29,905 nt of DNA from a virus: the IMG/VR virus record IMGVR_UViG_2724679704_000001. One strand, given 5' to 3'. The position numbers were made by a program, and so were the translations under genes. Shown here in pieces: positions 10,396-29,905 of the stretch (position 1 is the first letter of the stretch; each line of letters starts with the position of its first letter). Under the pieces are notes generated by a model. The model did no database searches, was not told where the DNA came from, and saw only the letters and a list, made by a program, of their open reading frames with translations.

Positions 10396-10471
10396 GATGT
10401 TCGAAGTCGGCGATGTGTGGTTGGCGGTTGATACAACCTGCTCTGAGGGGACGAATGGCAGCTGACCGCAG

Positions 10472-12358: not shown

Positions 12359-12516
12359 ACTGTCACCCCTGCTCCGGGCCAATTTACAGGCGTGGTGGTT
12401 GAGGACGGGTAGTTTTGGCTGTTCATTATCGATCTAGGTTCGTGGCTTGTGGTGTCCATAGCTGTAGCTCGTCACCGGGTTTCTCCAGTAATTTCTCGCG
12501 TTCAGCGTGCTAGTGT

Positions 12517-14352: not shown

Positions 14353-15174
14353 TCAGTGAGCGTCAATATCGGTGGCCTCCTCCAGCCGCTCAACACGCTC
14401 GCACAACTCTCCGAGGTCAGGGCCCTCAGTTCGGGCTTCCTCCAGCGGTCGGACATCGGTGAGCGCTTCGTCGATACGGTCGTCTTCAGCCTCGCCACCG
14501 AGGTAGAGGTTGCGCCGATCTTCGTGGAGGCTCCGGAGTGTCGACTCGGCGATGCCGGTGTCGTCAGCGACAGTCGCAAACGACTCACCGCGGTCGACGC
14601 GGGCGAGGGCCTCGCGAGTATGGAGGAATTCGGCCGGATCAACGCGGAGGTACCCATCTTCGACGACGAACCCCGCAGGCGGTCTCCCAGTCCACTTTCC
14701 GGCGGACTGTGCAGCCCGGACGCCCGACCGAATTCGCTGAAGGTTTTGCTGGTGTTCTATCTGGGCGAGGTCGCCCATCAACCGAGCAACCATGCTGTAT
14801 ATTGTCTGCTGGAGCTCGCCGTCGTCGACGTGAATCTTCAGGCCGACGTCGAGGGCTTCGACGCCGGTATCGTGTTCCAAGCAGTGCTGGATGAATTCGT
14901 GAATCTCAGTCGGACCGAGCCGAGAGAGCCGGCTGATCTCATGAACAACCACGAGATCGAACCGTCCCTCCTCAACGTCTTCGAGGAGGTGGTTGTACAC
15001 CTCGCGAGTGTCGGTGTCGGCGGCGCCGGAGACAATTTCAGGATACTCCTCAATGTCTTCGACACCGAGACGCTCTAGGTGTTCGTGTGCTTCGTCGAGC
15101 TGCCGAGACACGTCCTGGTCCGATGTCGAAACTCGGGCGTAGATTGCTGCGTCTGAGGGTCCGTTTTCGCTCAC
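14353..15174 (-). CDS. Serine recombinase (resolvase/invertase family) with C-terminal HTH
   Basis: AAIYARVSTSDQ catalytic motif, VVHEISRLSR, GKWTGRPPAGF, HTH FATVADDTGIAESTLRSL; visibly GC-richer than its flanks. Confidence 0.93.
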   Translation of the reverse strand: MSENGPSDAAIYARVSTSDQDVSRQLDEAHEHLERLGVEDIEEYPEIVSGAADTDTREVYNHLLEDVEEGRFDLVVVHEISRLSRLGPTEIHEFIQHCLEHDTGVEALDVGLKIHVDDGELQQTIYSMVARLMGDLAQIEHQQNLQRIRSGVRAAQSAGKWTGRPPAGFVVEDGYLRVDPAEFLHTREALARVDRGESFATVADDTGIAESTLRSLHEDRRNLYLGGEAEDDRIDEALTDVRPLEEARTEGPDLGELCERVERLEEATDIDAH

Positions 15175-15584
15175 GTTTTCGAGGACGTGCTATCATTTCA
15201 AACAAGTGGGGGTTATCGCGGTTCCGTGTAAACCACTAGGTTTTCGCAATAATTAACCTCAAGAGATTACTCCCTCAAGACTTGTCTATGAGCGAAGTGG
15301 TCTACGTGATTCGGATTTTTACCTCGAATATTCTGGGGCTCAAAAACGCGCTGACGGTGACTGTCAGGACGATCCTCAGCGACGTAGTTTTTCCCGTCCA
15401 TCCGTGCGGCTTTCTGCCAACCCCTCTATATTGCTTGGAAGACAAACTGTGGTCTTGTAGGCCTTCGAGCTTATGATGAATCAGAAGAGGACTTTGACCT
15501 CGAAGAGTTGCGCTTGGTCGTCTGGGCGGATGCGGTTTGATTGACTAGTCCTTCGAATATAGGGATGATTTCCTTTTATTTATT

Positions 15585-15983
15585 TTATTGTACCTGCTCT
15601 CTTGCGGACTTCAATTCTGTATCACCGAACTCAACAGTTTCTTCAATCCCGCCTCGCCGTGCCTGTTCGAGCCGGATGTACATTTTTTTAGGAGATATTG
15701 TCTCGGTAATTTCTTCATACATCTCAGCACCAAGTCCTTCGGCAGTGATCTCAACATCACGATACGATTCAAGGAACTTTTTCAGGCTCTTGCTCTCGAC
15801 ACAGTCTTCGGAAGGAACGTATTTTAGAGTGAACTCATAGTAATCAGGCCCTCCGAAGTCGAACGGACAGAGTGCTGTTACTTCGTCTGTTTCAAACGTA
15901 TACACCTGAGCGACTGACGTCTCCGGGGCTTCAAAAGAGTCCAGTAAGGAACTTCGTTCAGAACTGGAAGAGGACTGTGACAT
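15585..15983 (-). CDS. queF: QueF-type preQ0 nitrile reductase (unimodular T-fold)
   Basis: ALCPFDFGGPDY (catalytic Cys and Asp), QueF motif ESKSLKKF, second Glu 19 residues after the motif Glu, terminal RRGGI. Confidence 0.82.
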   Translation of the reverse strand: MSQSSSSSERSSLLDSFEAPETSVAQVYTFETDEVTALCPFDFGGPDYYEFTLKYVPSEDCVESKSLKKFLESYRDVEITAEGLGAEMYEEITETISPKKMYIRLEQARRGGIEETVEFGDTELKSAREQVQ

Positions 15984-16017
15984 AGTACAATCTACGTGTC
16001 CCCTCTAATAAACGCTC

Positions 16018-16554
16018 TCACTTACTCAGGTGCCGTTCCATCTGATACATTTCTCGACCACCATTTGTAAAGTACGAATCAACTTTGTGAAACCCGATAG
16101 CCTCCCAGAATTGTACTGCGGGAGCTTCGGCTGCAACGTCCGCGATTATTGATTCCTTATTATGCTCTTTTGCAAATTCAATAGCCTTTTTCACCAAGTA
16201 CTGTCCGATTCCATAGCCTCGATAATCTGGTGAAACAGCAACAAGGCGTATTTGTGCTTCCGTTTGGTCAAGCACTCTCGATTCACACCAAACCATGAGT
16301 CCGCCGATGATCGCATCGTGGGGTGCAAAATAAAACAACCGTCGGTCAGGCCGTGACGCTGCACGTTCCAGGGTGTCCCGATGAGTGAACCAATGGAGTT
16401 CAGATTTGATCTGATTAGAATTAAAAAAAGAATTCAATTCTGATACCGATCTCTCACTTTTGCTAATTGATTTGACAAGGAAGTCAGAGATCTGGAGGTC
16501 GACTGTAGTTGGCACTGCCGTAGAATTATTTGATCGTTGAATATTTGTTGTCAT
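16018..16554 (-). CDS. GNAT-family N-acetyltransferase
   Basis: IRLVAVSPDYRGYGIGQYLV acetyl-CoA motif A, AVQFWEAIGF motif B; ATGA overlap with the upstream ATPase. Confidence 0.9.
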   Translation of the reverse strand: MTTNIQRSNNSTAVPTTVDLQISDFLVKSISKSERSVSELNSFFNSNQIKSELHWFTHRDTLERAASRPDRRLFYFAPHDAIIGGLMVWCESRVLDQTEAQIRLVAVSPDYRGYGIGQYLVKKAIEFAKEHNKESIIADVAAEAPAVQFWEAIGFHKVDSYFTNGGREMYQMERHLSK

Positions 16555-17720
16555 GCCCCGCTGCCACCATGCTGACTCATACGTGGTCGCATTTGAACCT
16601 GCTTGACTACTTCTCTTTCGTCATCGACGCAGACTGCTTCACCAACTTTATCGATTTTCTTGATATAGGTCTTCAGCTGACTCCCCATGTACTCCTGACT
16701 TAGTTCGTTCAGCGACTGAATATCAGTACGAGTAGTGATTTTGTGACAGAAAATCAAGTCCATTTGGGACACGACATCTGAGGATACAGCACTTGGCTGT
16801 TGAGTTGCTATGCCGAGCGACAGCCCCGGCTGACGTCCCTCCTTGATCCATCGAATCAAGATATCCTTCGCAAGCGAGGACGACCCGGACGGTGCAAAAT
16901 TGTGTGCTTCATCGATGAATAGCCAGACCTTCGGAATATCAGAGGACAACTGTAGTTCCTCTCGACGGCGCGCTTTCGATCGCTCATCAAATATTTTTTT
17001 TGTCAGTACGTAGACGACCAAATTACGAAGACCGTACTTCCCTGGGTCGAGAACACTCACGTCGAGAATATTAACCCGAGAAGGATCGAGATTGTTCCAG
17101 ATGTCTGTATATGAGTCACTAAAGATGCCCCATTCGTGTGCCATCTCTAGACGATTGACAAGAGCGTCCACAGTCCGCTCGTTTGCTTTTTCGTCGTATT
17201 CAACTTCTTCGATGAGCTCGTCCAGGTCAAAGAAGTCTTGAGATTCGTTTAGCGAACGGACAGCTCGGTACAACGCAATACCCATCGGTTTGTTTATATT
17301 GAGATCGAAGAGTTCACACCACCCATCGGGAGAAATGTCAGAAGGATTGAGACGCAGGCTCTCGATTTCAATACCGCGGCGCATCATCTCATCGTAGACT
17401 TCAGGTCCGTAACGTTCTGTTGGATCGCCCGGAACGAGGAGTGTAGTGTCAAATCCAGTCGGCTGCATTCCCCAATCCCAGAGGAGATCTTGCTGTTCGT
17501 CATTTGGTTCGGCCATCGTCCAGTAAATCCCCATCGGGTCAACAACAAGGGGAACTGTGTCGGGCATCTCTCGGTTGACCTCCTCGATGACGTTTCCCAA
17601 CGAATAGCTCTTGCCGGTCCCTCGCTTCCCACAAACGAATAGAGCACGGGCCTTCGAAGTGTCAATAAGCGTTTCCTCGCCGCTATCACGTTCCTCGCCA
17701 ATGAATATTTCTTGTGTCAT
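16551..17720 (-). CDS. HerA/DUF87-like P-loop ATPase, no obvious N-terminal HAS barrel
   Basis: FVCGKRGTGKSY, VVDPMGIY, WLFIDEAHNF, IKEGRQPGLSLGIATQQPS. Confidence 0.85.
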   Translation of the reverse strand: MTQEIFIGEERDSGEETLIDTSKARALFVCGKRGTGKSYSLGNVIEEVNREMPDTVPLVVDPMGIYWTMAEPNDEQQDLLWDWGMQPTGFDTTLLVPGDPTERYGPEVYDEMMRRGIEIESLRLNPSDISPDGWCELFDLNINKPMGIALYRAVRSLNESQDFFDLDELIEEVEYDEKANERTVDALVNRLEMAHEWGIFSDSYTDIWNNLDPSRVNILDVSVLDPGKYGLRNLVVYVLTKKIFDERSKARRREELQLSSDIPKVWLFIDEAHNFAPSGSSSLAKDILIRWIKEGRQPGLSLGIATQQPSAVSSDVVSQMDLIFCHKITTRTDIQSLNELSQEYMGSQLKTYIKKIDKVGEAVCVDDEREVVKQVQMRPRMSQHGGSGA

Positions 17721-18892
17721 TTCAGATCCTCGTATTCAATTAACGGAACAATGGACTCTTGGTACGAAAAGCCACCGTGTACTCCTGGTTCGTTACTTCG
17801 TAGGTTATTGAATATGTATGGGTGATAAAGCCGGAGATATTGCTGACCAGCCCAGAAGGATGTTTCACCAACGGACTCAGGAACAGATGCGCTGGCTGGA
17901 GGGTCTTCATAGTCCCGACGAATTCCCTGCTTCCACTTTTCATCGAGTGCCTCAAAGTCAGTATCCATCCGCCAGAGAATACCATGGTCGGCAACAGCGA
18001 AAATACGGAATGAGTCCGTTTCTTTGCTGATCGTTTCACGGAGGTCAGACAACTTTTGATGAACTGCGTCTACCTCACTCTGGATCACAGGATCCTCCTT
18101 CATTCGGTGCGCTACACGTTCAGGACCGGTGAGAGTGAACTGGAGATAGGTCTTTGGTCGATACCAATCGTGGGTCTGTAGATATGAGATGGAATCACCA
18201 AAGTCCTGGATGTTTCCGATTACGTCGTTCTTGGAGAAACCATCGTGTAATTCGTCAGAAAGGTCGTTATCCTTACGTTCCCAGTAGGTGAACGCCTTCC
18301 GGGTTTTATATCCCTTGTTGAAGAGCCGATATTGGAGATGCTTCCCATTAGACGCCCCACGGACGACATTTGGGTAGCCACAATCTGTACGTGTTGGGCA
18401 ATCAACATAGATTGGCTCTGCCTCATAGCCTGAGTCTGTCCAATCCTGATAGGAGAGGCCATCAACAATAACCAGCGCAATGACATCAACACCAGATGCC
18501 GCCTCCGTGATGAGATCGCCGACCTCTGATTGACAAGTGGTTGTGCTCTCCACATCGTCCCAAGAAATCGAACCCTCTGATATGAGTCTATTGAGCGACC
18601 TATCGTAAACGGTGCCAGTGTATTCGACCTGTTCTATCGAAGGTGGGTTGTAGAGCGTAAGTGACCTATCAAAGGACGGCTTAGGTCCCTGATCTCGAAT
18701 GATCACATCGGTTTCAATCAAATTAGTCGGAGACTCATAGAGGCGGTAAAACTCTTCAAGCGATTCAACGGTATCGATACCATGCCTGTTTTGTAGTACC
18801 CGAGACTCGAGCCCTCCGATATTTGCGACAACTGGTCCGTCACGTGTCGCTTCAGCCAAGGCAGACAGTGACTCGATGGTACAGGTGGACAC
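17717..18892 (-). CDS. pglZ: PglZ-like alkaline-phosphatase-superfamily protein (compact)
   Basis: LVIVDGLSY, CPTRT, AVADHG, HGGFSYQESIVP match PglZ motifs; GTG start 5 nt after the large ATPase stop. Confidence 0.8.
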   Translation of the reverse strand: MSTCTIESLSALAEATRDGPVVANIGGLESRVLQNRHGIDTVESLEEFYRLYESPTNLIETDVIIRDQGPKPSFDRSLTLYNPPSIEQVEYTGTVYDRSLNRLISEGSISWDDVESTTTCQSEVGDLITEAASGVDVIALVIVDGLSYQDWTDSGYEAEPIYVDCPTRTDCGYPNVVRGASNGKHLQYRLFNKGYKTRKAFTYWERKDNDLSDELHDGFSKNDVIGNIQDFGDSISYLQTHDWYRPKTYLQFTLTGPERVAHRMKEDPVIQSEVDAVHQKLSDLRETISKETDSFRIFAVADHGILWRMDTDFEALDEKWKQGIRRDYEDPPASASVPESVGETSFWAGQQYLRLYHPYIFNNLRSNEPGVHGGFSYQESIVPLIEYEDLK

Positions 18893-18897
18893 GGGAG

Positions 18898-21800
18898 TTA
18901 CCTATGTTCGCTTTTGATCGAGAGCGTGATATGGTTCCCCTCGAATAAGGTTTCCAGATCGGCAAAGAACTCTGCAACGTCGGTGTCACCTTTCTTTTCA
19001 GAGACTGCAATTAGGACGCTCTCCAAGTCAGACTGATCCCGATAGTCCAGTTCATCCATAATATATTCAAGATCTTCTGGGGGAGTCTCAGTGACCTGTC
19101 GCCACTCGCGAACGTCTTGATGGAGTGCCTCAATTGAATCTCGGATTTCGTCGATTCGTTCGCCGACGTTCACCTCGCGATTGTCAATCGAGAGACTCAA
19201 TTTCTCATCGGTGTTGGGGAACGAGTTCGAACGGCCATCCTCAGTCGGAAGTTGGATAGCCGAAGTGATATCCATTTGACTGACAGCCTGATGGATATCT
19301 TCAATAGTAGATTCGAAGTCGGCTATCTGATCGCGGATATCAGCCGGAGTCGGGTCAGCTTCATCCGGAACCTGATTCAACAACTCAGCATACTCAATGC
19401 TGGTCTCAATCGATTTGATATCGGACTTTACATCTTCGATTCCATCGCTGTTCTCGACCAGCTGACGGCGGAACTCATGCTTGAGGTCATTACGTGACTT
19501 CTCAGCATTGTTAGGACTCAGGTTTTGTCTGATACTTGGGTGGCCGGAAGTACCAATCTTCAGCGTGTTCTCAAGCACATTCTTCCGGTAATTGAAGTTC
19601 TCTTCGTCCCCCTGAGTTATCTCCTCGAATTGGTCTTTGAGGTCTTCGAACTGCTGCCGATACATTTCGGCATTCCGCAGTGCCTGAGGGAAGTCGTCGT
19701 GGTCACCGCCTTTCTGGAACTCAGTCTGAATCTCACTCATCAGAGCGGTAAGCTCATCTCTGATTGACATCGCGGCACTGTTGTCAGGATGGGTGTTTGC
19801 ATACTGAACAATGTCCGAACGAGCGGCGTCCATGTCATTCGCAAGTCGACACCAATCCGCGTAGTCAGCCGCGTCCTCTTTGATATCCTCTAATTCTTCA
19901 TCAACCTGCTCAGCGATTTCTTTCGCCTCGCTAATTGAGTCCTGTAGAGTATTAATCTCACTCAGAGTTGCCGTGCCAGATGTAATCTCGAGATCTGTAT
20001 CAAGATCAGAGCGGGCAGAGTCGGCCTCTGTAGTTGCTTTTGTAAAGTTGGATGATAGTTCAGTCTCGATGTCTTTGATATGGAGGCCGAACGGAACATT
20101 AGACTTCTCGACAGTCTTTTTCAGATCGCGAGGCTTGTTTCTGGATGAAAGCCCTTTGAGTCTGTCTATTGTTCCTCGGGCACGTTCATGAAGGGTCGCA
20201 CTTGTGGCCTTGATCTGCGTCGAGATCTGCGAATCTACCGCTTCTAGCTCGGCGTTAAGATCATCAAGTATCTCAATGTCGTCATTCGTCGTTCCACTGA
20301 GTTCCTCCTCGATGCGATCCAACTCATCAGTGATCGAGTCATACTCACTCCACTCGTTCGAGATTTCGTTGAGCTCGGCAGCCGTGTTTCGGAGTGATTC
20401 CAGCCGAGATTTGACTTGGTCGATGTCGATAGCAATGTCGCTCAGTTCGACCGTGCCATCGTTTTGATCATGCTTGATGAAATCTCGACCAACAAGGAGA
20501 CGGATTGCCCAGTCAACTTCTTCCTGCCGGTACCCCTTCTCCCCGGCTACATCATATAACTCACTGACGGCGACAGTTTCCTTCTCTTGCTCCTCGATAT
20601 GGTCTTTAACAAGTTCTTCAAGCGGATGAAGGGTCAACCGAACCCTGGCATCCTTGCCCTGCCAGACTTCGGTGTCAACGAGATCTTCAAATTGTTTATC
20701 AAGGCGTGTTTTTGCTGTCGAATTACTAGATACCCCGATCGCGTTGGAAATATCGCTTTTTGTACCTTCAATTGGGGTATTACCCCGCTTTTGTGAGATC
20801 CGGATATTCGGATCGTTTCCTACTAGGAGGGATTCATAGTCATCTAAGAAGGTCTGGTAATTGTCCGAGATGAAGAGGGTTTTATAATCAGGATAGACCT
20901 CTTCGATTACACGGTTGAAGATTTTCTCGACGACCTTTGACGGATCAACGGTCCGGCGACTACTCCCTGATTCATCGAGGAAGTCGTCCCCATTCAGGGG
21001 AGGGCCAAACGCCTTCTGAATGCTTTGCGTGACTAGCTGGTCACGGATATATTCCAACTGTGTCTCCTGGTTGGGATTGACTGTTTGGTTCTCCTCCCAA
21101 TTACGCATGAAGTGATGCAAGGAGAGCAGCAGATGAGGGCTGACGTCTTCCGGACTCATGTAATCTTCCAACATAACGATATTGCTCGGGAGGCTGTCGA
21201 AAGAATCAGCTAAGTCTAGATGTAGAAGAACCTCGTCAGTAGATACCCGTTCGATGTGAGGGGTGACTTCAGTCTGCTTCTCCATGTTAACGGCAAAGCC
21301 AATCGTGAGGTCAGTATCTGTGCCTTCATCGGGCGATTTAACTGATGTAGCATCCGTGCCCATTCGGATTTCAATAAGCCGCTCAGGGTACTCTTGCCCG
21401 TTGAATGACCCACGAAAGACTGCCGCGTACACTCCTCCAGTTTCGGGCTCAAAGGCGTGTTCGGTAACCCAGCTGCTCAGACTCTTTCCTCGAACAGCGG
21501 GGAAGAGTTCTTCCGAAGCAACAAATTCTCGGAACGTCTCAGAAGCGTTCGAATCGTATATGTCTGTGGTGTCATAATCCCGATAGAACTGTGTGAACAG
21601 TTCGTCTTTGATCCCACGATCCTCTCCTTCCCGCTCAAGACGTTTGAGCGTGCGCCCTTCCTCGTGTGTGATGATGAGCTGTCCGTGAAGTTCTCCTTTG
21701 ACCTGTTCTTTCGCCTCGTGAACCCCATACTGCTTCAGTAGGTCATCTGAGACTCCTCGAGGGAATACCCCACACAGCTTGATGAAATTCTCACGATCGG

Positions 21801-22989
21801 AGGTACTTATTTGATCAGAATTAATCGCCTCTGTGATTGCGGTTTTGATGTGGTCTCCTTTGAATCGGACAACGCCATTATAGTACGCATTAGCGAGGTC
21901 AAGAGCATCAAACGCCTCCGACTCAGAGAGGTAGTGCTCGATAGCGATCGTGAGAATGTCCACAACTGAACGAGGGCCGTTTGAAAGAGGAGGTCCACGT
22001 TCACAGATCTGACCAATTGCGTCTAGCGTATCCTCGGTAATTACTTCGTAGCGTCTGTCCTTGAAACCGTAAGTTTCAGCCAGACTTTCCCACAGCTTAG
22101 TCGGGAAATCTCGGTTGTAAACATTCGCTAAGTTGAGTTGAACGTTCTGTTCTGCTAACCGCGCAAGAACATCGTCTGCATTCACGTCCAGGTCTCCGTG
22201 GAGACCATCGTCCATGGTGAACAGAAGACCCAAGCCGTCGCCTTCGTTCAGGCCGAGGGCTGTGCTTTTTGCAATATCACGTAGCTTAGAGTATGCTTCT
22301 TTGTCAGACGAGTGGCTGGATATGAACTGCTGAAGTTCGTCGGCAATAACGACGAGGCCTTTGTACCCAGCGTCTTTTGCGATCTGATTACATTCAGAAA
22401 GGAAATCCAGGACGTGTTGGACCGAGAATTCGATATCAATCGATCCCGACTCGATTAGTCGCTCGAACTCTTCCCGGGTTTGATCTTTGTCATCGAATCC
22501 AGTTTGGTCAACAATATCTTCGACGTTACTGGTCACTTTGGCCTGGTACCGCTGTTCGAGGGTTTCTAGATGCTCTTCTCGGTCCCTCAAGCGGAACCGC
22601 ATCCATCCGTACACGGCGTCGACAATTGACTGTAGTTCATCGAAATAGATCGGAGGGGTAGTAATGTAGTTGTCTTCCTGGTCAAGAAGGTACCAAACTT
22701 TTCCCGTTGTACTGGTCTTCCCAAACCCGTAGGGGCCCACAATGTATCCAGGAACAGATTTATTCAGATCTTCATCTTCGAGGGCTCCAGTCAACGAATC
22801 AATAAACCGTTGAATGTCTGGCTGGATCAGGTGAGTCCGAGCGTACTCAATGTATTCGGTCTCGATATCGCTCGGCTGGTCTAAAAATCGGTGAGCGCTT
22901 GATGTATTGACAATCCCCTCATCTTTGTTCAGCGTGTCATTGAGTTCTCGAAGAGAGGACTCGATATTTTGCGCATTCGCCTGTCCCAT
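18898..22989 (-). CDS. BrxC/PglY-like large P-loop ATPase with wHTH-like segments and a long coiled-coil tail
   Basis: 1363 aa; IVGPYGFGKT Walker A, VVIADELQQF Walker B near the N-terminus; heptad-rich acidic C-terminal third; directly upstream of PglZ. Confidence 0.75.
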   Translation of the reverse strand: MGQANAQNIESSLRELNDTLNKDEGIVNTSSAHRFLDQPSDIETEYIEYARTHLIQPDIQRFIDSLTGALEDEDLNKSVPGYIVGPYGFGKTSTTGKVWYLLDQEDNYITTPPIYFDELQSIVDAVYGWMRFRLRDREEHLETLEQRYQAKVTSNVEDIVDQTGFDDKDQTREEFERLIESGSIDIEFSVQHVLDFLSECNQIAKDAGYKGLVVIADELQQFISSHSSDKEAYSKLRDIAKSTALGLNEGDGLGLLFTMDDGLHGDLDVNADDVLARLAEQNVQLNLANVYNRDFPTKLWESLAETYGFKDRRYEVITEDTLDAIGQICERGPPLSNGPRSVVDILTIAIEHYLSESEAFDALDLANAYYNGVVRFKGDHIKTAITEAINSDQISTSDRENFIKLCGVFPRGVSDDLLKQYGVHEAKEQVKGELHGQLIITHEEGRTLKRLEREGEDRGIKDELFTQFYRDYDTTDIYDSNASETFREFVASEELFPAVRGKSLSSWVTEHAFEPETGGVYAAVFRGSFNGQEYPERLIEIRMGTDATSVKSPDEGTDTDLTIGFAVNMEKQTEVTPHIERVSTDEVLLHLDLADSFDSLPSNIVMLEDYMSPEDVSPHLLLSLHHFMRNWEENQTVNPNQETQLEYIRDQLVTQSIQKAFGPPLNGDDFLDESGSSRRTVDPSKVVEKIFNRVIEEVYPDYKTLFISDNYQTFLDDYESLLVGNDPNIRISQKRGNTPIEGTKSDISNAIGVSSNSTAKTRLDKQFEDLVDTEVWQGKDARVRLTLHPLEELVKDHIEEQEKETVAVSELYDVAGEKGYRQEEVDWAIRLLVGRDFIKHDQNDGTVELSDIAIDIDQVKSRLESLRNTAAELNEISNEWSEYDSITDELDRIEEELSGTTNDDIEILDDLNAELEAVDSQISTQIKATSATLHERARGTIDRLKGLSSRNKPRDLKKTVEKSNVPFGLHIKDIETELSSNFTKATTEADSARSDLDTDLEITSGTATLSEINTLQDSISEAKEIAEQVDEELEDIKEDAADYADWCRLANDMDAARSDIVQYANTHPDNSAAMSIRDELTALMSEIQTEFQKGGDHDDFPQALRNAEMYRQQFEDLKDQFEEITQGDEENFNYRKNVLENTLKIGTSGHPSIRQNLSPNNAEKSRNDLKHEFRRQLVENSDGIEDVKSDIKSIETSIEYAELLNQVPDEADPTPADIRDQIADFESTIEDIHQAVSQMDITSAIQLPTEDGRSNSFPNTDEKLSLSIDNREVNVGERIDEIRDSIEALHQDVREWRQVTETPPEDLEYIMDELDYRDQSDLESVLIAVSEKKGDTDVAEFFADLETLFEGNHITLSIKSEHR

Positions 22990-23076
22990 AGTAACTATAC
23001 CCTTCTGGCACTTCTCTGTTAATAAATTATTGGATGATCGACAGACAGTAGAGAAGGGGGATATCTCCTGTAAGTA

Positions 23077-23478
23077 TCAGTTGTCAGAGAGTGTAACACG
23101 CGCTTTTGTTTCCGGAACCGGTTTGCGCGAAACTGAAATCACCGTGTCTGGAGTGTCAAATCCAATAATTTCACGCGCTCTGCGTGACGCTGTCCTGGTT
23201 GCCGGTACATTATCGACGAAGAGGACTTGTGTTGAGGCATTTTTCACGGGCAGCCATGGAGCGTATCCCCACCCGTTCTGATGAACCATCATATATTTAG
23301 CCAGCGTGGTCTTGCCAACACCTCTTGCTCCATACAAGTTGTAATGACCGCCGTCCTGATCAGCAAATTCCAAAAGTTTCGAGCGTACTGCGATCTGATC
23401 TTCGGTCAGGAGGTCATCTTGTAGTCGCCGCTTTGCCTCATTAGATTTCTGTAGTAGTTCTGCAACAGGTGACGACAT
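23077..23478 (-). CDS. Small P-loop protein in the BrxB position
   Basis: 133 aa from ATG 23478 (1 nt after the upstream stop); LYGARGVGKTT and VLFVDN. Confidence 0.7.
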   Translation of the reverse strand: MSSPVAELLQKSNEAKRRLQDDLLTEDQIAVRSKLLEFADQDGGHYNLYGARGVGKTTLAKYMMVHQNGWGYAPWLPVKNASTQVLFVDNVPATRTASRRAREIIGFDTPDTVISVSRKPVPETKARVTLSDN

Positions 23479-23479
23479 G

Positions 23480-24340
23480 CTATTGGAGGTCATCAAGAGT
23501 TACTTCTCGGTCTAATCGAAGGTTGAGACCAAAGTCATGTTTCTTTGAGAAGAATGGATACGCCTGTTCAGCGTACTCGGTTACCTCATCGAACCCATCA
23601 TCAGAGAGGAGGCACATCTGTTGAATTCGAACTTTGGTATCATCTGTCACTCTGAGGAGCGTCTCATAATCTGTCTCGTTTTGCTTATAGATATGATCCA
23701 CGGCCAAGATCATAAGTTCCGGAGGGCAGAACGCACGTCGCTCGAATCCGGGACTCCCAGAGTCATCCTCCACTAGCACCTCGGGGGATAGTTCCGCAAG
23801 ATACTGCAGATAATTATTGAAACTCTTTGTACTAAGTGACACGCCGCTTCGTGTCTTGGAAACGTCGACATCTGGACTCTGTTCTGCTAATTCGGTGACT
23901 TCACCAACAATTGTTCCACGCTCTCCCCGAAAAGTGCTAAACGGAGAATTATCATAGAGATAGTTGGTCATCTCTCTGTATGTGTACGACATAAATACAT
24001 ATCTGTCTGGGTATCTCTCAAAAGCAGAGTAATAAAGAAAATGAAGTACCGTATTAAACAGGTTCCGATCCCTATACATGATATCGACCAGGGAGTCACC
24101 GAGTTCAGTAAACTGAAATTGATCGGTGGGATCGACAATCCCGAGCCGGCCAAGCACCGAACCTTCTGTAGATTTCTCCTTGCTTCCGATTGAGTGGCCA
24201 AGATCTCTGGCCGATTCAAGAAGCCCTGGATTCGATGATGGCGATGTTGCCTCCACGGTGTCCAAATATTCATACAACTCCTGAGGGCCAGGGTCACTAA
24301 TATGGAATTTTGAAGTGTAATGACTCATCTCGTCATTCAA
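23480..24340 (-). CDS. Winged-helix-like protein in the BrxA/SspB/DpdG position
   Basis: VLGRLGIVDPTDQFQFTELGDSL wHTH-like segment; SD GAGGTG 5 nt before TTG 24340 (alternative ATG 24328); family inferred from position. Confidence 0.6.
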   Translation of the reverse strand: MNDEMSHYTSKFHISDPGPQELYEYLDTVEATSPSSNPGLLESARDLGHSIGSKEKSTEGSVLGRLGIVDPTDQFQFTELGDSLVDIMYRDRNLFNTVLHFLYYSAFERYPDRYVFMSYTYREMTNYLYDNSPFSTFRGERGTIVGEVTELAEQSPDVDVSKTRSGVSLSTKSFNNYLQYLAELSPEVLVEDDSGSPGFERRAFCPPELMILAVDHIYKQNETDYETLLRVTDDTKVRIQQMCLLSDDGFDEVTEYAEQAYPFFSKKHDFGLNLRLDREVTLDDLQ

Positions 24341-24375
24341 TTAGACACCTCAAACAAATATCTACCTCTAGATAA

Positions 24376-25443
24376 TCAGTTCCGGACCGACTCGGTTGAT
24401 GTAAAGTTCTTTAGGTAGCCGGTATACTTTGAGTTAGGATTCATCATCTCGATGAGTTCTTCGAGCGAATATTCTAGGATCATGTCTGTCATCTCACGCA
24501 TAACAATAAGATTATGTAAAATTCGATGTTGACGACTGTTTTGCAGGGATTCGAATGACTGACAGTACGGACATTCATGTCCGGTCTCCTCTTTTATTTC
24601 CCTCAATTCCTCTCGGAAGACTGTAGGACCGGACCGATTGCGAAGGTGCGTAACATTAAGCCGACTTTTAAATGGGAAAAAGATATTTCCATAACCCCCA
24701 GATCGTATCCAGCCAGTCGAATCGAACGTATCAACACCACACTGATATAGGATAGGAATTGAAGTTGGCCCACCAATTCCGAATGCATGGACGTCTAGAT
24801 CATACTTCCGAGCCTCTTTCACAACGAATTGTAGTAGTTCGAGATTCTCCTCATTCAAATAATTCACACCCCCATTTACTCCTCCGGTACCAAAGCTCCC
24901 AAACCCAATTTTATTTATTTTGTCAAACTTCCTATAAACATCGAGACACTCAACGATTTGTTGTTTAGTATGCCCCTGGATTACTGGCACTGCGCGCTCT
25001 TGCTTGTCGCTTGGTAGTTCATTATATAGCATTCGAGAGAGAGAGATTGTGTCTTGGACCTTCTGCTCTATCGTTGCCTCGTCGTCTCCTTCTACGGGCA
25101 CTTGGTCGGGCAGAACTAATTCGTCAGGCCAGTCTGTCGACAAGTAGTATTCTCGATCAAATGTATAGATGTCTTTCATCGTATATTCATCGTTGACTTG
25201 AGACTCATACCCTCCCGAATCACAAGCGAATGTGAGATCGTAGGACGATGAAAGCGATTCAAGATAATCAACCGCAATCTCTGAGGAGGTAAGCGGACAA
25301 AACATCATCCGACCAAGAGCATACTCTACAAGGTTGTATTCCTCGAGGTCCTCCACGATATCGATAAGCTGAGAACGATTGATTTGCGCGACAGACGCCA
25401 CGAATTCCATCTCGCCGACGTCATCGAATTGGTATCGTCGCAT
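24376..25443 (-). CDS. dpdA: TGT-family deazaguanine transglycosylase, DpdA-like (probably DNA-acting)
   Basis: CDSGGYE, LPDQVP, PVIQG, VHAFGIG, GVDTFDS (catalytic Asp), zinc site HECPYC...HN; 355 aa with no PUA extension. Confidence 0.82.
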   Translation of the reverse strand: MRRYQFDDVGEMEFVASVAQINRSQLIDIVEDLEEYNLVEYALGRMMFCPLTSSEIAVDYLESLSSSYDLTFACDSGGYESQVNDEYTMKDIYTFDREYYLSTDWPDELVLPDQVPVEGDDEATIEQKVQDTISLSRMLYNELPSDKQERAVPVIQGHTKQQIVECLDVYRKFDKINKIGFGSFGTGGVNGGVNYLNEENLELLQFVVKEARKYDLDVHAFGIGGPTSIPILYQCGVDTFDSTGWIRSGGYGNIFFPFKSRLNVTHLRNRSGPTVFREELREIKEETGHECPYCQSFESLQNSRQHRILHNLIVMREMTDMILEYSLEELIEMMNPNSKYTGYLKNFTSTESVRN

Positions 25444-25792
25444 GAAGCTACTTACTCAGATACCCTACCTCACTCGTCATATCATTTGTGTCTTCAATAC
25501 AGGGAGTGTAAGCACAGATATATTATAATAACATTACTATTATCCCGATTCTTGTTCCGTTGAATCCACAGAAGGTGAGTAACCGATGCTACGTTCGAAT
25601 ATAGAGTGGAATGTTTGTGATCTATGTTTGTGATTTCACGAGACTATTTCATTTATTCTAGTGTAGCTAACAATATACGCGAAAATTTCGCGATACTACA
25701 ATGAGCCACAACCTGCTCAGCGAACGGAGCATTACTTCTCAGAGACTGGAAGTAGCAAGACCACTTTGGGGTCTATCAGCTGGGAACTGTTA

Positions 25793-26164
25793 CTAAGATT
25801 GGATGGTAATACTCACTTTGTAAGGTACTTTCACAGTGTCTTTGCCAAGTGAAAGCGCTTTGTGCGTATTTCCAGATTCGTCTTGTACAATCAGTGTCGT
25901 TGATCGATCTTTCAAACGGAAGATAGCATAGTGAGTATAGGTATCTGTCTGAAGTGCCTGAAGATCAACGGGAGGCGAATCCTCTAACGATCCGATTTCA
26001 GTTACTTTTCCCACCTCGGTGGTTGCTCCCTGCCTTTTGTAAAATTTGAGCTGATACAGCATCTCTCCAGATTTGCCGTCCATTTGCTTTTCATCAGGGG
26101 CTCGCGTGGAGTCTATTTCACTCAAGGACAAGCTACTCTCTCGTTGATCTTCTCGTTTACTCAT
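25793..26164 (-). CDS. Hypothetical protein
   Basis: 123-aa ATG ORF on the same strand, upstream of the dpdA operon; no recognisable motif. Confidence 0.55.
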   Translation of the reverse strand: MSKREDQRESSLSLSEIDSTRAPDEKQMDGKSGEMLYQLKFYKRQGATTEVGKVTEIGSLEDSPPVDLQALQTDTYTHYAIFRLKDRSTTLIVQDESGNTHKALSLGKDTVKVPYKVSITIQS

Positions 26165-26375
26165 TGTCTATTCTTATCGTAGTGTATATTTGTAATCTTG
26201 GATGGTGTTGTTCATCTTCTTGATCGGTCGAGATCTCCTCAACATTTGGCGGAAAAGTGTCTCTCACCAATCCGGCGAAAATCCGTGTGAAAGGTGTCCA
26301 TACTTTGTGAATAAGTGTTCATAATCCAAAACTAGTGAACAGGCCCGTACTCGATAATTAAGCTGGATCCTAATA

Positions 26376-26381
26376 TTTATA
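26376..26381 (+). promoter_or_regulatory. TATA box of the queDEC operon (leaderless)
   Basis: TTTATA about 24-29 nt upstream of the queD ATG at 26405. Confidence 0.55.
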
Positions 26382-26404
26382 TCTGCGATTGGTAATCTTC
26401 GAGT

Positions 26405-26866
26405 ATGTCTCAAAGCATATCGCAAGATGATTCTACGGCTGAAAACTTGGTCGAGGCAGGCCAGCGGACACTCAAAATCGGAGGCGACAATCCAATCCGG
26501 ATCAGTTCGGGTCATCGAATCCTACATCACGACGGGAAGTGTTCGCGGCCACACGGCCACAACTACGAGATCACTGTCGAAGTGACCGGTGAACTCACCG
26601 AGGAGGGCTGGGTCGTCGACAAAGGCGACGTCACGGACGTCATCGACGCGTGGGACCACCGGTTCCTCGTCGAAGAGGGCGATCCGCTCGTCGACGCGTT
26701 CGAAGCGTCCGGCGACGGCGACGCGCTCGTCGTCTTGGAGCACCCGCCGACGGCAGAGGTGATGAGCGTCCTCCTCGAACAACGCATGCTCGATGCGTTC
26801 CCGGACACCGTCTCGGACGTGTCGGTGTCGGTGAGCGAAACCGGCGAGCTCTGTGCGACCTACTAA
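26405..26866 (+). CDS. queD: 6-carboxy-5,6,7,8-tetrahydropterin synthase
   Basis: GHRILHHDGKCSRPHGHNY, WDHRFL, PTAE; TAATG overlap with queE. Confidence 0.93.
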   Translation: MSQSISQDDSTAENLVEAGQRTLKIGGDNPIRISSGHRILHHDGKCSRPHGHNYEITVEVTGELTEEGWVVDKGDVTDVIDAWDHRFLVEEGDPLVDAFEASGDGDALVVLEHPPTAEVMSVLLEQRMLDAFPDTVSDVSVSVSETGELCATY

Positions 26867-27642
26867 TGCCGGTCGCAAATGATGTCGAGGAGCCCACAAC
26901 GGACGCTGACGCGACTGGTGAGGGGCTTCCGATCAACGAGGTGTTCTACTCGTTGCAGGGCGAAGGAACGCTCGCAGGCGTGCCCTCTGTCTTCGTGCGG
27001 ACGTCTGGGTGTAATCTGCGGTGTTGGTTCTGTGATTCGTACCATACGTCGTGGGAGCCGACTGGGGCGTGGCGCGATGTCGATTCGATCTTGGAGGAAG
27101 TCCGCTCCCACGAGCAGGCGAATCACGTCGTACTCACGGGCGGGGAGCCGCTCATCCACGAGGAGTCCGTCGAGCTCCTCGAACGGCTCGACGAAGAGGG
27201 GTATCACGCGACGGTGGAGACAAATGGGACGATCTACCGGGACGCACCAATCGATCTGGCGAGTATCAGCCCGAAACTGGCGAGCAGCACGCCGACACCG
27301 GAGCGCGACCCGAAGGGGGAGGGCGAGTGGGAGGAGAAACACGAACAGAATCGGATCGATATGGATGCGTTGTCCCAGATGGTCGATGCGTACGAGACCC
27401 AACTCAAGTTCGTCGTGACCGACGAGACGGACCTCCCGGAGATCACAGACCTGGTTGACCGAGTGCGAGAAGCGACGGCGACGACCGTCGCCGATGATGA
27501 CGTCCTGTTGATGCCAGAGGGCATGACGCGCGAGCAACTCGACGGGACGCGAAGCGAGGTCGCCGAGCTGGCGATGGAGTACGGCTACCGGTACACGCCA
27601 CGACTCCACGTGGACCTATGGAACGACGCACCGGGTACATGA
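26866..27642 (+). CDS. queE: 7-carboxy-7-deazaguanine synthase (radical SAM)
   Basis: EVFYSLQGEG, GCNLRCWFCDS (CxxxCxxC), VLTGGEP, ETNGT, PRLHVDLW; true start at ATG 26866. Confidence 0.95.
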   Translation: MPVANDVEEPTTDADATGEGLPINEVFYSLQGEGTLAGVPSVFVRTSGCNLRCWFCDSYHTSWEPTGAWRDVDSILEEVRSHEQANHVVLTGGEPLIHEESVELLERLDEEGYHATVETNGTIYRDAPIDLASISPKLASSTPTPERDPKGEGEWEEKHEQNRIDMDALSQMVDAYETQLKFVVTDETDLPEITDLVDRVREATATTVADDDVLLMPEGMTREQLDGTRSEVAELAMEYGYRYTPRLHVDLWNDAPGT

Positions 27643-27758
27643 GTACGTCACTCTCAGAGACCGGTCGGAAGAGCGCGGTGCCGCGAGTGCGGTGTGAGTG
27701 TCGCCTGCGGCGTGGTGAACAGAGCGATAACCGATTCGACGCAACCAAGCAGACATGA
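27639..27758 (+). CDS. 39-aa micro-ORF linking queE and queC
   Basis: MSTSLSETGRKSAVPRVRCECRLRRGEQSDNRFDATKQT*; ATGA overlaps at both ends. Confidence 0.4.
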   Translation: MSTSLSETGRKSAVPRVRCECRLRRGEQSDNRFDATKQT

Positions 27759-28444
27759 GCAACAAAAGCGCGGTCATTCTGGTGTCCGGCGGGATGGATA
27801 GTGCGACGGCTGTGTACGAGGCGATCGAGCAAGGGTACGAGCCGTACTTCCTCCATACGTCGTACGGGCAGCGCACGGAAGACAAGGAGTACGAGTGTGC
27901 GAAAGCGCTCGCTGAGGAAGTTGATGCGGCTGACTTCCTCCATATCGAAACGGGGCACCTCTCGCAGATCGGTGCATCGAGTTTGACGGACGAAGAGATG
28001 GACGTGGCCGACGCGGATCTTGAGAGTGACGAGATTCCGACGTCGTACGTTCCCTTCCGAAACGCGAATCTGTTGTCGATGGCGACGTCGTACGCGGAAG
28101 CGACTGATTCGGAGGCACTGTTTATCGGCGCGCACTCCGAAGATTTCTCCGGCTACCCTGATTGCCGTCCGGCGTTCTTCGACGCCTTTCAGAACGTGAT
28201 CGACGTCGGGACGAAACCAGAGACAGAGATTGAATTGAAAGCGCCGTTCGTCGAGTGGTCGAAAACGGAAATCGCGGAGCGTGGGTTGGAACTCGACGTG
28301 CCGTACGACATCACGTGGTCGTGTTACCGCGACGAGGAACCGGCGTGTGGGACGTGTGATGCGTGTGCGTTCCGGCTTGAGGCGTTCCGGAATGTCGGGT
28401 CACGCGATCCGATCGCATACGCTGAGCGGCCGGAGTTCTCGTAA
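27755..28444 (+). CDS. queC: 7-cyano-7-deazaguanine (preQ0) synthase
   Basis: SGGMDS PP-loop, YVPFRNANLL, YPDCR, TWSCY...CGTCDAC zinc site. Confidence 0.96.
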   Translation: MSNKSAVILVSGGMDSATAVYEAIEQGYEPYFLHTSYGQRTEDKEYECAKALAEEVDAADFLHIETGHLSQIGASSLTDEEMDVADADLESDEIPTSYVPFRNANLLSMATSYAEATDSEALFIGAHSEDFSGYPDCRPAFFDAFQNVIDVGTKPETEIELKAPFVEWSKTEIAERGLELDVPYDITWSCYRDEEPACGTCDACAFRLEAFRNVGSRDPIAYAERPEFS

Positions 28445-28612: not shown

Positions 28613-29590
28613 TCACGAGTATTCGTCTCGTGGGATGTTATGAGCAGTTAGAAGGTCACATAGTTGCTTTCCATCGAGAAGCTCAATCCGATCGGTTTTC
28701 TCAACGGTGTTAGTGAAGCTAGAACTCGTTACGACTACAACCCGATCAGCATCCTCGATCTCCAGCAGGCCCGCAGTTTCCCTGACCGTTTTGACTCCAA
28801 CCCGGTTCTGATGGCGTTTTGCTTGGATCAGAATTCGCTTGTCTTTTTTCCTTGCATCAACGTCATAACCACCATCTTTCGCCCGTTGAGTCACCTTAGT
28901 CGAATACCCCATCTCAGACCAAAGGGCCGCAACTACTCGTTCAAACTCGACAGGGTCACACTCAAACAGGTCTTTATGCTTCCATCGGATCGACTCACCT
29001 CTCCTGTCGGTTTGGATTTTCTCCGTCGCCCACTCGGCAACAGCACGAGTGTATTGCGAATCACTTAATTGGAGTTGCTTGATCTGTCGGAGAGCGGTTT
29101 CATCCTCTAAGTGACCAAGTGCGAGGCAAGCATGCCCTTGTACTACTGTATTCTCGTCCTTGAGGAGGTGCCTAAGACCGACGGCTGTGCCTTCAACTGT
29201 ACTAACGTCAGTTCCCGCAAAATGAGCGAGAATGCGGCATGCTGAACCTCGAATCAGGTCGTCTCGATGATTGAGGAGTTCAAGTAGTTCCGGATCAATA
29301 TATTCCGTTAGCTTGTCTGGTGGGTTTTCTGCTACCCAAGAGAAGGTAATACGTGCACCGGGAGGAGTTACCTCATCGACCGAGTGAAGATCGTCAAAAA
29401 GATCGTCAGGATTCCGAACAAAGAGATGGGGTTCCTCAGCGAGTATCGTATACAAACCAATGGCAATCAGATCACGGGCATCGTCATTTTCCGTATCTCG
29501 AAGGTTATTGAGCTCCTCGACTAGTTCGCGCGAGCGCTCGCCGCTCTCCACCCGTTCGAGGAGTTCCTCGGCTCTGTATTTATCATTCAT
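28613..29590 (-). CDS. mrr: Mrr-family restriction endonuclease with N-terminal HEAT-like repeats
   Basis: PVEFERVVAALWSEMGY, DGGYDV, IQAKR, VVVTSSSFT; N-terminal IRGSACRILAHF and VQGHACLALGHL HEAT-like repeats; alternative GTG start at 29614. Confidence 0.85.
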   Translation of the reverse strand: MNDKYRAEELLERVESGERSRELVEELNNLRDTENDDARDLIAIGLYTILAEEPHLFVRNPDDLFDDLHSVDEVTPPGARITFSWVAENPPDKLTEYIDPELLELLNHRDDLIRGSACRILAHFAGTDVSTVEGTAVGLRHLLKDENTVVQGHACLALGHLEDETALRQIKQLQLSDSQYTRAVAEWATEKIQTDRRGESIRWKHKDLFECDPVEFERVVAALWSEMGYSTKVTQRAKDGGYDVDARKKDKRILIQAKRHQNRVGVKTVRETAGLLEIEDADRVVVVTSSSFTNTVEKTDRIELLDGKQLCDLLTAHNIPRDEYS

Positions 29591-29905
29591 ACATCTATTG
29601 TGTTCTAATGCCACGAAAGTAAGCCCTTGTGAACGGTTCTACCGACTGTGTTGAAACCTTTAGTGCCTGTGGCGTTCTAAATCTACTCTGTATCTTGTAC
29701 GCAGTTTCTGATATAGTGTGGAGAGGCCGGCGTTCTTCATTGGTCTATGAGTTCCCTGTGTTGACCTCAGCGAAGTCAAACTGTGTCGTTACTACGGGTT
29801 TCTACAGACCGTACGTGTTTACCCCGGAGTCTCGACAGCCGGCACAGCGTGAGCCCGTGAGATCAGTTCATTGTTACTGACGGCTCGACGAAGCTCTTCG
29901 TATGG

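Follow-up and report, generated by a model that had tools for sequence, protein, structure and literature searches.

The IMG/VR record IMGVR_UViG_2724679704_000001 is a stretch of 29,905 nt (hereafter, the window; positions count from its first letter) that carries an operon related to the bacteriophage exclusion (BREX) systems. Judging from its sequence, this locus is a haloarchaeal member of BREX-Related Capture (BRC), a system that was predicted in silico by Rakesh and Krishnan (NAR 2026, PMC12839542; bioRxiv, October 2025): it has each of the seven components of that system, and their order is of the type that was published. The operon also encodes a predicted QueF, which would reduce preQ0 (7-cyano-7-deazaguanine) to preQ1 (7-aminomethyl-7-deazaguanine), and the genes for preQ0 synthesis (queD, queE, and queC; together, queDEC) are nearby. 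On balance, we think it probable that the locus encodes a restriction-modification-like defense in which a preQ1-derived, and possibly N-acetylated, 7-deazaguanine serves as the mark of self DNA. Relative to published BRC, the new elements are the constant QueF, the recurrent linkage to queDEC, a 123-aa gene, and the predicted preQ1-derived mark; the core architecture was already known.

The seven components of BRC are PglZ, a BrxC-like DUF6079 protein, an active STAND NTPase (a homolog of BrxB), a BrxA-like DUF4007 protein, HerA/FtsK, a GNAT acetyltransferase, and a TGT (PMC12839542). (TGT is short for tRNA-guanine transglycosylase.) BRC was reported from 45 taxa, including three archaeal classes; HerA/FtsK is universal, while the pair of GNAT and TGT is found in a subset of the loci. 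The supplementary alignments list Halohasta, Halorubrum, Halogeometricum, Haloplanus, Halobacterium, Halovivax, and Haloprofundus, and the mark was proposed to be "perhaps restricted to dPreQ0 alone" (dPreQ0 is the deoxynucleoside of preQ0). The main text and the supplementary alignments of that paper make no mention of QueF, of queC, queD, or queE, or of the 123-aa gene. The first-pass annotation of this DNA, which was made from the letters alone, had put the architecture forward as novel, with the caveat that the literature must be checked. The caveat was right: BRC has been published, with haloarchaeal members.

Gene content of the operon

Eight co-oriented open reading frames (ORFs) on the minus strand span 15585-25443, and queD-queE-queC are divergent from them, at 26405-28444. 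In operon order, the eight genes encode a TGT-like protein, a 286-aa protein, a small P-loop protein, a 1363-aa ATPase, a PglZ-like protein, a HerA-like protein, a GNAT, and QueF. Successive genes are separated by 35, 1, 87, and 5 nt, then overlap twice by 4 nt, and the last gap is 34 nt. (The 1-nt gap is valid with the ATG at 23478 as the start of the small P-loop gene; the alternative start in the ORF list is an upstream TTG.) The order, strand, and spacing of the eight genes and the divergent queDEC cluster agree exactly with what the first-pass annotation had reported. The start of queE overlaps the stop of queD by 1 nt (TAATG). The GC content of the operon is 0.44-0.50, versus 0.53-0.61 for queDEC. 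The features are:

24376-25443, minus strand: TGT-superfamily transglycosylase of the BRC clade, 355 aa, predicted base-exchange enzyme (Pfam TGT, 1.6e-10)
23480-24340, minus strand: BrxA/SspB-like (DUF4007-type) tripartite winged helix-turn-helix (wHTH) protein, predicted to bind DNA, 286 aa (structure match)
23077-23478, minus strand: small P-loop NTPase with a Walker A motif (the "active STAND" of BRC, BrxB-like according to PMC12839542)
18898-22989, minus strand: BrxC-like P-loop ATPase, 1363 aa (Pfam BrxC_BrxD, 27.3 bits)
17717-18892, minus strand: short PglZ-like protein of the alkaline-phosphatase superfamily, 391 aa, predicted effector (PADLOC PglZ, 3.8e-6)
16551-17720, minus strand: HerA/FtsK-type translocase ATPase (DUF87, 4.2e-12)
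16018-16554, minus strand: GNAT acetyltransferase (Acetyltransf_1, 3.7e-14)
15585-15983, minus strand: QueF-family protein (type B), predicted to reduce preQ0 to preQ1 (Pfam QueF, 5e-17)
25793-26164, minus strand: conserved accessory gene, 123 aa, between the TGT and queD
26405-26866, plus strand: QueD, 6-carboxytetrahydropterin (CPH4) synthase (PTPS, 1.2e-20)
26866-27642, plus strand: QueE, radical-SAM 7-carboxy-7-deazaguanine (CDG) synthase, 258 aa (Radical_SAM, 1.6e-17; CNLRCWFC motif)
27755-28444, plus strand: QueC, preQ0 synthase (QueC, 2.2e-72), at the right end of the common 13.2-kb block

As the first-pass annotation had remarked, the usual modifiers of BREX are missing. Domain scans of the window's non-shadow ORFs above about 200 aa found no methyltransferase, no 3'-phosphoadenosine 5'-phosphosulfate (PAPS) reductase, and no BrxL, and none of these is a conserved neighbor across the 11 related haloarchaeal loci described below.

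Conservation of the core genes

Our statements about whole genomes rest on the genome nearest to the window (G001) and on samples of its relatives. The PglZ-like gene was found in 11 of 401 sampled Halobacteria genomes, from 9 genera. In all 11 loci, the order of the seven core genes is identical, and there is no further conserved neighbor besides those described here. The haloarchaeal host that had been suggested for this DNA is supported. A phylum-wide sample of 401 genomes held no copy outside Halobacteria; the methanogen members named in PMC12839542 lay outside this comparison.

We also identified 20 bacterial loci (one genome per species), from Chloroflexota and Acidobacteriota. Some of these have the full order; the others have a minimal form with the TGT, BrxA-like, BrxC-like, and GNAT genes. 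Given the seven core genes in all 11 haloarchaeal loci and the many bacterial loci, the grouping is not due to chance. No QueF, QueC, or QueD was found within 10 kb of the 20 bacterial loci. Of five bacterial host genomes, all encode a canonical bacterial TGT (bTGT), none encodes QueC, and just one encodes a QueF that scores above the cut-off. These hosts therefore already depend on a supply of preQ1 or of a queuine-type base, which they must take up from outside. We considered a housekeeping QueF as the reason that the bacterial loci are free of QueF, and rejected it because only that one host in five has a QueF above the cut-off.

Several loci have additional peculiarities. The bacterial minimal forms in L061, L072, L073, L074, L049, and L050 lack both PglZ and HerA, and in L048 and L049 the minimal-form genes are preceded by genes for large proteins with sigma-70 r2 and r4 domains. 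In one metagenome contig (L079, 9912-12537, minus strand), a BRC operon with HerA relocated upstream abuts a convergent gene pair. One product of this pair, of 815 aa, faintly matches PglZ, and the other, of 1326 aa, faintly matches BrxC-PglY_N.

QueF is a constant component of the haloarchaeal loci

Pfam's QueF model scores above its cut-off in just 14 of the 401 Halobacteria genomes, and these include all 11 of the BRC-positive ones. Furthermore, in each of those 11 genomes, a QueF lies within about 11 kb of PglZ, and in three loci (L036-L038) the stop region of QueF overlaps the start of the TGT by 4 nt. The proposal that QueF belongs to the operon thus held up, as it is integral to every haloarchaeal locus. 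Archaeosine synthesis in haloarchaeal tRNA requires preQ0, not QueF (PMC5699537), and the control genome, of Haloferax volcanii, had matches for QueC and QueD but none for QueF. Because the tRNA pathway of haloarchaea stops at preQ0, the preQ1 that QueF would make is the one thing that they lack.

The signature of QueF comprises a catalytic Cys, an Asp, a His-Glu pair, and an NADPH-binding motif, E(S/L)K(S/A)hK(L/Y)(Y/F/W). The haloarchaeal proteins are of two types. Type A, which is found upstream of the TGT in related loci, is canonical and has the whole signature, with every catalytic residue. The window's protein is of type B; when it is aligned with QueF from Bacillus subtilis, the NADPH motif (as ESKSLKKF) is retained, as are three catalytic positions (Cys, Asp, and Glu). 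The locus in genome G053 (L034) encodes both types side by side, at 14393-14821 (minus strand) and 15529-15936 (plus strand).

The operon and queDEC travel together

Window positions 15236-28443 align with a 124-kb contig of G001 in one collinear alignment of 13,210 bp, at 97.3% identity, and the flanks of this block are unrelated. In the window, it lies between a serine recombinase and an Mrr-HEAT protein; in G001, its neighbors are AddAB-like genes and, at the other end, an ADP-ribosylglycohydrolase. The whole 13.2-kb block, from QueF to queC, moves as a unit. A search of its two ends for terminal repeats, direct or inverted, found none. Identity to the G001 locus (L031) is about 99% from QueF into queD and 87-91% across queE-queC (26700-28443). 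This drop is a recombination breakpoint within the que cluster, and it implies that the junction between the que genes and BRC predates the most recent exchange of the operon. Near-identical copies of the locus are present in metagenomes from salterns, brines, lakes, and food (at least 10 studies); among the public runs listed as containing the locus, there was no RNA dataset.

The linkage is not limited to this block. queDEC adjoins BRC in the window and G001, in Halorubrum sp. SY-15 (G040), in G161, and in the metagenome contigs L078 and (partly) L077. This amounts to at least five lineages with three different arrangements. QueC is common in Halobacteria (303 of 401 genomes), but in the nearest genus it is present in just 3 of 10 genomes, and two of those three copies are beside BRC. 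The constant QueF and the frequent queDEC point to chemistry at the level of preQ1.

The first-pass annotation had described the preQ0/preQ1 pathway as the operon's own. In support of this, queDEC travels with the block, and QueF is dedicated to the locus. In G001, however, the counterpart of queC is the sole QueC of the genome, and the chromosome encodes archaeal TGT (arcTGT) and an ArcS-like gene. Therefore, queDEC is probably shared with the synthesis of archaeosine in tRNA, and the locus would be described more accurately as having a linked and shared supply of preQ0 along with a dedicated QueF, instead of a private pathway.

An alternative is that queDEC is simply the housekeeping archaeosine pathway and that its position has no functional tie to the defense genes. 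Besides the sole QueC and the archaeosine genes of G001, the higher GC content of queDEC and the lower identity of queE-queC to G001 would fit with this, as would the 8 of 11 genome loci that have no queDEC beside them, because it is missing or lies elsewhere. Yet the adjacency recurs across those five or more lineages in three arrangements, queDEC is still attached in the window and in G001 even though the outer flanks are wholly different, and QueC is rare in the nearest genus and is mostly found beside BRC. We consider it unlikely that the position of queDEC is without functional meaning.

The serine recombinase (14353-15174, minus strand; Resolvase, 8.1e-24) abuts its QueF end, and an Orc1/Cdc6 gene (813-2042, minus strand) lies at the start of the window. 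The recombinase, Orc1/Cdc6, and the low GC content suggest that the locus is on a plasmid or in an island. Directly after queC, and outside of the common block, is a gene for a protein with HEAT repeats and an Mrr_cat nuclease domain (28613-29614, minus strand). This nuclease is type IV-like (PADLOC mREase_IV/PDC-S02), of the kind that attacks modified DNA, and it sits beside a system that is predicted to modify DNA.

The TGT and the GNAT

An alignment of 18 TGT sequences from this family shows that D75 (in DSGGY, equivalent to D102 of bTGT), D113, Q156, and D241 (equivalent to the nucleophile D280 of bTGT) are conserved. The zinc site is retained as well (H289-x-C291-x-x-C294...H310). With both catalytic aspartates and the zinc site in place, the protein looks like an active TGT-type enzyme. 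It lacks a PUA domain and a C-terminal tRNA-binding domain. The first-pass annotation had likened it to the DpdA-type TGTs, which act on DNA. The assignment to the TGT superfamily, with intact catalytic motifs, stands; it cannot be assigned to DpdA, as the models for DpdA, arcTGT, and TGT tie at weak scores. For instance, the NCBIfam model of DpdA gives 23.5 bits, versus a cut-off of 200, and the DpdA4 of a halovirus had no match to the window's TGT. The residues that align with positions 231-235 of bTGT vary within the family and their register is ambiguous, so they do not distinguish between preQ0 and preQ1 as the substrate.

The GNAT retains the acetyl-CoA motif (R-G-Y-G-I-G) and aligns with the haloarchaeal GNATs of BRC in the supplement of PMC12839542; these are plainly the same family. 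In metagenomic homologs (P0103-P0112), within bacterial BRC loci, the GNAT is fused to the TGT. Because fused forms exist, the GNAT is functionally tied to the TGT. There are precedents for the chemistry that we propose below: a GNAT-like enzyme acetylates 5-aminomethyl-dU within DNA (PMC8989533), and phage DNA contains methyl- and formyl-dPreQ1 (PMC10516641).

A similar pair is found in Thermocrinis Great Boiling Spring virus; no other phage record had a related TGT. In this virus (L042, BK013347.1, 3953-5130), a GNAT gene overlaps a TGT-like gene of the BRC clade, and the pair adjoins genes for a sliding clamp, a helicase, a nuclease, and a DNA polymerase. The pair may be a viral DNA-modification module that protects the virus's own DNA. 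The paper that describes this virus makes no mention of the GNAT or the TGT-like gene.

The BREX-like proteins

The 286-aa protein has no match in Pfam. An AlphaFold2 model (pLDDT 95.5) resembles SspB along its entire length (6juf_B: VIA-align Z 16.1, root-mean-square deviation 3.5, 252 residues aligned). It also resembles BrxA (3bhw_B, Z 9.8, and 7zge_A, Z 9.5), with about 180 residues aligned. As a background for these scores, the next structures are single wHTH domains, at around Z 8. Pfam's DUF4007 model had no match to seven members of the alignment (the window's protein and six relatives) or to 10 sampled hits of the protein's profile, which retrieves 210 representatives. The kinship of this predicted DNA-binding protein with BrxA and SspB is supported by structure alone.

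The small P-loop protein has a Walker A motif (GARGVGKT), a Walker B-like motif (hhhhDN), and weak matches to AAA_25 and AAA_16. It was found in all 11 haloarchaeal loci. Its pattern is like that of the haloarchaeal rows in the STAND alignment of PMC12839542, and its position and size also agree.

The 1363-aa ATPase matches Pfam's BrxC_BrxD at 27.3 bits, which is above the cut-off of 22.2, over only 74 residues. Its Walker A motif (GPYGFGKT) is at position 85 and its Walker B motif (VVIADE) is at 213. It is present in all 11 haloarchaeal loci, at 26-29% identity. The DUF6079 model had no match at E ≤ 0.01 to this protein; like DUF4007, it had none among the window's proteins, the family members, or the profile hits.

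In the PglZ-like family, six of eight members have weak matches to Pfam's PglZ, and the putative metal-binding and nucleophile residues are conserved (D144, T169, D302/H303, and H372-G-G). An AlphaFold2 model of moderate confidence (pLDDT 71) matches YejM, PorX, ENPP, and LtaS at E ~1e-5. (We take PorX to be a PglZ-domain protein.) These matches support the placement of the PglZ-like protein in the alkaline-phosphatase superfamily.

The HerA-like protein is the most conserved of the core proteins, with 62-68% identity among haloarchaea. It matches PADLOC's models for HerA (2.4e-19) and mad8 (3.3e-18), and its Walker motifs are at positions 31 (A) and 266 (B).

Overall, the structural comparisons and the motifs agree with the first-pass proposal of a BREX-type scaffold (BrxA/SspB-like, small P-loop, BrxC-like, and PglZ) that is combined with a TGT and has no methyltransferase. 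In particular, the structural check that it had called for placed the 286-aa protein with SspB and BrxA and the PglZ-like protein in the alkaline-phosphatase superfamily.

A proposed mechanism and its alternatives

In the mechanism that we favor, queD-queE-queC would make preQ0 from a GTP-derived pterin, and QueF would reduce it to preQ1. The TGT would then swap guanine in the cell's own DNA for a 7-deazaguanine base, and the GNAT would acetylate the aminomethyl nitrogen, either before or after the insertion. The BrxA/SspB-like protein, the small NTPase, the BrxC-like ATPase, HerA, and PglZ would recognize incoming DNA that is not marked and destroy or exclude it. We infer that DNA is the substrate of the TGT, that the mark is preQ1-derived or acetylated, and that viruses or plasmids are what the system guards against. 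A more specific version is that QueF, the TGT, and the GNAT together make N-acetyl-7-aminomethyl-7-deazaguanine (or another N-acyl derivative), a base that has not been seen in nature, and that this base tells a BREX-like restriction machinery which DNA is self. We regard this version as a tentative possibility.

Several observations weigh against the preQ1-derived DNA mark. First, the TGT is not demonstrably a DpdA: the DpdA, arcTGT, and general TGT models all score around 1e-5 and far under their cut-offs, and when the family's profile was compared to the chains of solved structures, it matched only arcTGT and Cap10, and no DpdA. Second, the substrates of GNATs are highly diverse, and the sequence of this one holds no pointer to a nucleobase. 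Third, the window's QueF scores 82.1 bits with TIGR03139, just below the cut-off of 86.9, and it has Ala where the B. subtilis enzyme has His96. The three other Halobacteria genomes with QueF have Pfam scores for it in the same range as type B, and they encode only arcTGT and an ArcS-like gene, with no third TGT. The presence of both types of QueF in the G053 locus implies that the types may not be equivalent. Fourth, besides the probable housekeeping role of queDEC in archaeosine synthesis, two genomes that encode both BRC and QueF (G300 and G357, both 99% complete) have no QueC, and would therefore have to salvage preQ0. Together with the four of five bacterial hosts that have no QueF above the cut-off, this implies that the supply of substrate is not uniform. 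Finally, our search of the literature found BRC named only in PMC12839542 and found no experimental study of any BRC system, and hence no measurement of a modified base, of expression, or of defense; the first-pass annotation had likewise known of no experimental test of this arrangement.

Instead of a preQ1-derived base, the mark might be dPreQ0 only, as suggested in PMC12839542. QueF might then remove surplus preQ0, or be a weakened paralog, and the substrate of the GNAT might be a protein or a small molecule. According to PMC10516641, the DpdAs that were characterized before that study insert preQ0, and the missing histidine in the window's QueF and the scarcity of QueF in bacterial hosts would also fit. 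We nevertheless view this as distinctly unlikely. Each of the 11 haloarchaeal loci has QueF within it or close by, often in translational coupling with the TGT, and haloarchaea have no other use for this enzyme. Type A QueF has all of its catalytic residues. Also, the bacterial hosts that we checked do not encode QueC, so they have no endogenous preQ0, yet they carry a bacterial TGT that uses preQ1. Lastly, when a phage DpdA2 was expressed in E. coli, its product in plasmid DNA was mostly dPreQ1 (PMC10516641).

Another alternative is that the TGT, QueF, and the GNAT act on tRNA or some other RNA, with the retuning of translation in infected cells as one possible purpose, and that the BREX-like part needs no mark on DNA. 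The TGT superfamily does consist mainly of tRNA enzymes, the arcTGT model scores level with DpdA, and the best sequence matches among solved structures are tRNA enzymes. But G001 shows that arcTGT and an ArcS-like gene are already available in the host, and this TGT lacks the PUA and C-terminal tRNA-binding domains. Furthermore, it is always found among proteins that bind or translocate DNA, at the place of the BREX DNA methylase, and the related viral pair of GNAT and TGT is beside genes for a sliding clamp, a helicase, a nuclease, and a DNA polymerase. A role in RNA modification therefore seems quite improbable. The idea that the TGT is an effector that exchanges or excises guanines in captured foreign DNA, with no self mark, draws on the HerA-driven "capture" logic that is stressed in PMC12839542 and on the existence of base-excision restriction enzymes (PMC10273834), but it is very improbable, as a dedicated supply of precursor (QueF and queDEC) suits stoichiometric marking of a genome better than damage, PglZ is the conserved candidate effector, and the bacterial minimal forms without PglZ or HerA keep the TGT, BrxA-like, BrxC-like, and GNAT genes, which looks like a remnant that only modifies.

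The self marks that are known from the BREX family are adenine methylation and phosphorothioation. To our knowledge, a third chemistry, the exchange of a base for 7-deazaguanine, is a prediction only. With the haloarchaeal loci, QueF and often queDEC enter organisms whose pathway otherwise ends with preQ0 for tRNA. These loci also sharpen the prediction, as the set of candidate nucleosides is small and the carriers are culturable and have relatives with genetic tools. If the version with the N-acyl base is correct, a 7-deazaguanine mark would be known for the first time from the genome of a cellular archaeon. A positive experimental result would open BRC to experiment for the first time and might yield a new natural base of DNA; it would also be an example of a tRNA-modification pathway that is shared with genome defense.

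Other genes in the window

The 123-aa gene between the TGT and queD is a further linked component. It is present, in either orientation, in 7 of the 11 haloarchaeal BRC loci of 20 kb, and over the aligned part its product is 41-99% identical to the window's copy (66-99% in six of the seven loci). In an eighth genome (G191), it lies 2.7 kb beyond the 20-kb stretch. Across 151 genomes of the family, seven encode this gene, and five of these seven are BRC-positive. The protein has no match in Pfam or PADLOC; a weak lead from the Atlas hints at an FHA-like fold.

Farther from the operon, 8444-12382 (minus strand) encodes a 636-aa DEAD/ResIII helicase (PADLOC PbeA, 4.5e-22) followed by proteins of 247 and 403 aa that match no family; this three-gene set may be another defense module. 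At 2896-5115 (plus strand) is a 739-aa SF1 helicase (AAA_11/AAA_12) that matches PADLOC's MkoA, from Mokosh (2.2e-72), over the C-terminal part of the model only.

Comparison with known systems

We considered and rejected a kinship with MADS, which has eight genes (mad1-mad8), including a methyltransferase and the MAD3/MAD4 and MAD7/MAD8 modules. Only the HerA-like protein has a match (to mad8, 3.3e-18), and the rest are unrelated.

The phosphorothioation system SspABCD shares the SspB fold (PDB 6JUF), which extends along the whole of the 286-aa protein. In contrast, the window encodes no SspC, SspD, or cysteine desulfurase, and the predicted modifier would exchange a base instead of inserting sulfur. 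For the decoration of an aminomethyl group on a DNA base, the precedents are gp48 of phage PaMx11 (the 5-aminomethyl-dU N-acetyltransferase) and the phage proteins DpdM and DpdN; the likeness that we draw is one of chemistry. N-acetyl-dPreQ1 is not among the eight 7-deazaguanine derivatives of DNA that are listed in PMC10516641.

The Dpd system (dpdA-K, from Salmonella Montevideo) and the phage proteins DpdA1-4 are alike in that an enzyme of the TGT superfamily is paired with genes of the preQ0 pathway. The expected outcome is also alike: 7-deazaguanine in DNA, for discrimination between self and non-self or for protection. However, the window's TGT could not be placed in any DpdA subfamily, and the restriction side of the operon is BREX-like. 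In the operon and in the other ORFs of the window that we scanned, we found no DpdB (ParB-like), DpdC (DUF328), or DpdD-K. DpdB and DpdC are likewise absent from BRC (PMC12839542).

Canonical BREX (types 1-6) shares with this locus the BrxC-like ATPase, PglZ, the BrxA-like fold, and a small NTPase at the position of BrxB, along with the logic of an operon that combines a modifier, an ATPase scaffold, and PglZ. Unlike BREX, the window's operon has no PglX, no PAPS-reductase-like modifier, no BrxL, and no BrxH. Its PglZ is short (391 aa), HerA, the GNAT, and the TGT are added, and the Walker A motif of the small NTPase is intact. PglZ in BRC is also reported to lack the extra domains of the BREX proteins (PMC12839542).

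The closest system is BRC itself, whose seven components are the same as those of the window's operon. Compared to its published description, the haloarchaeal loci have QueF as a constant eighth component and often have queDEC attached.

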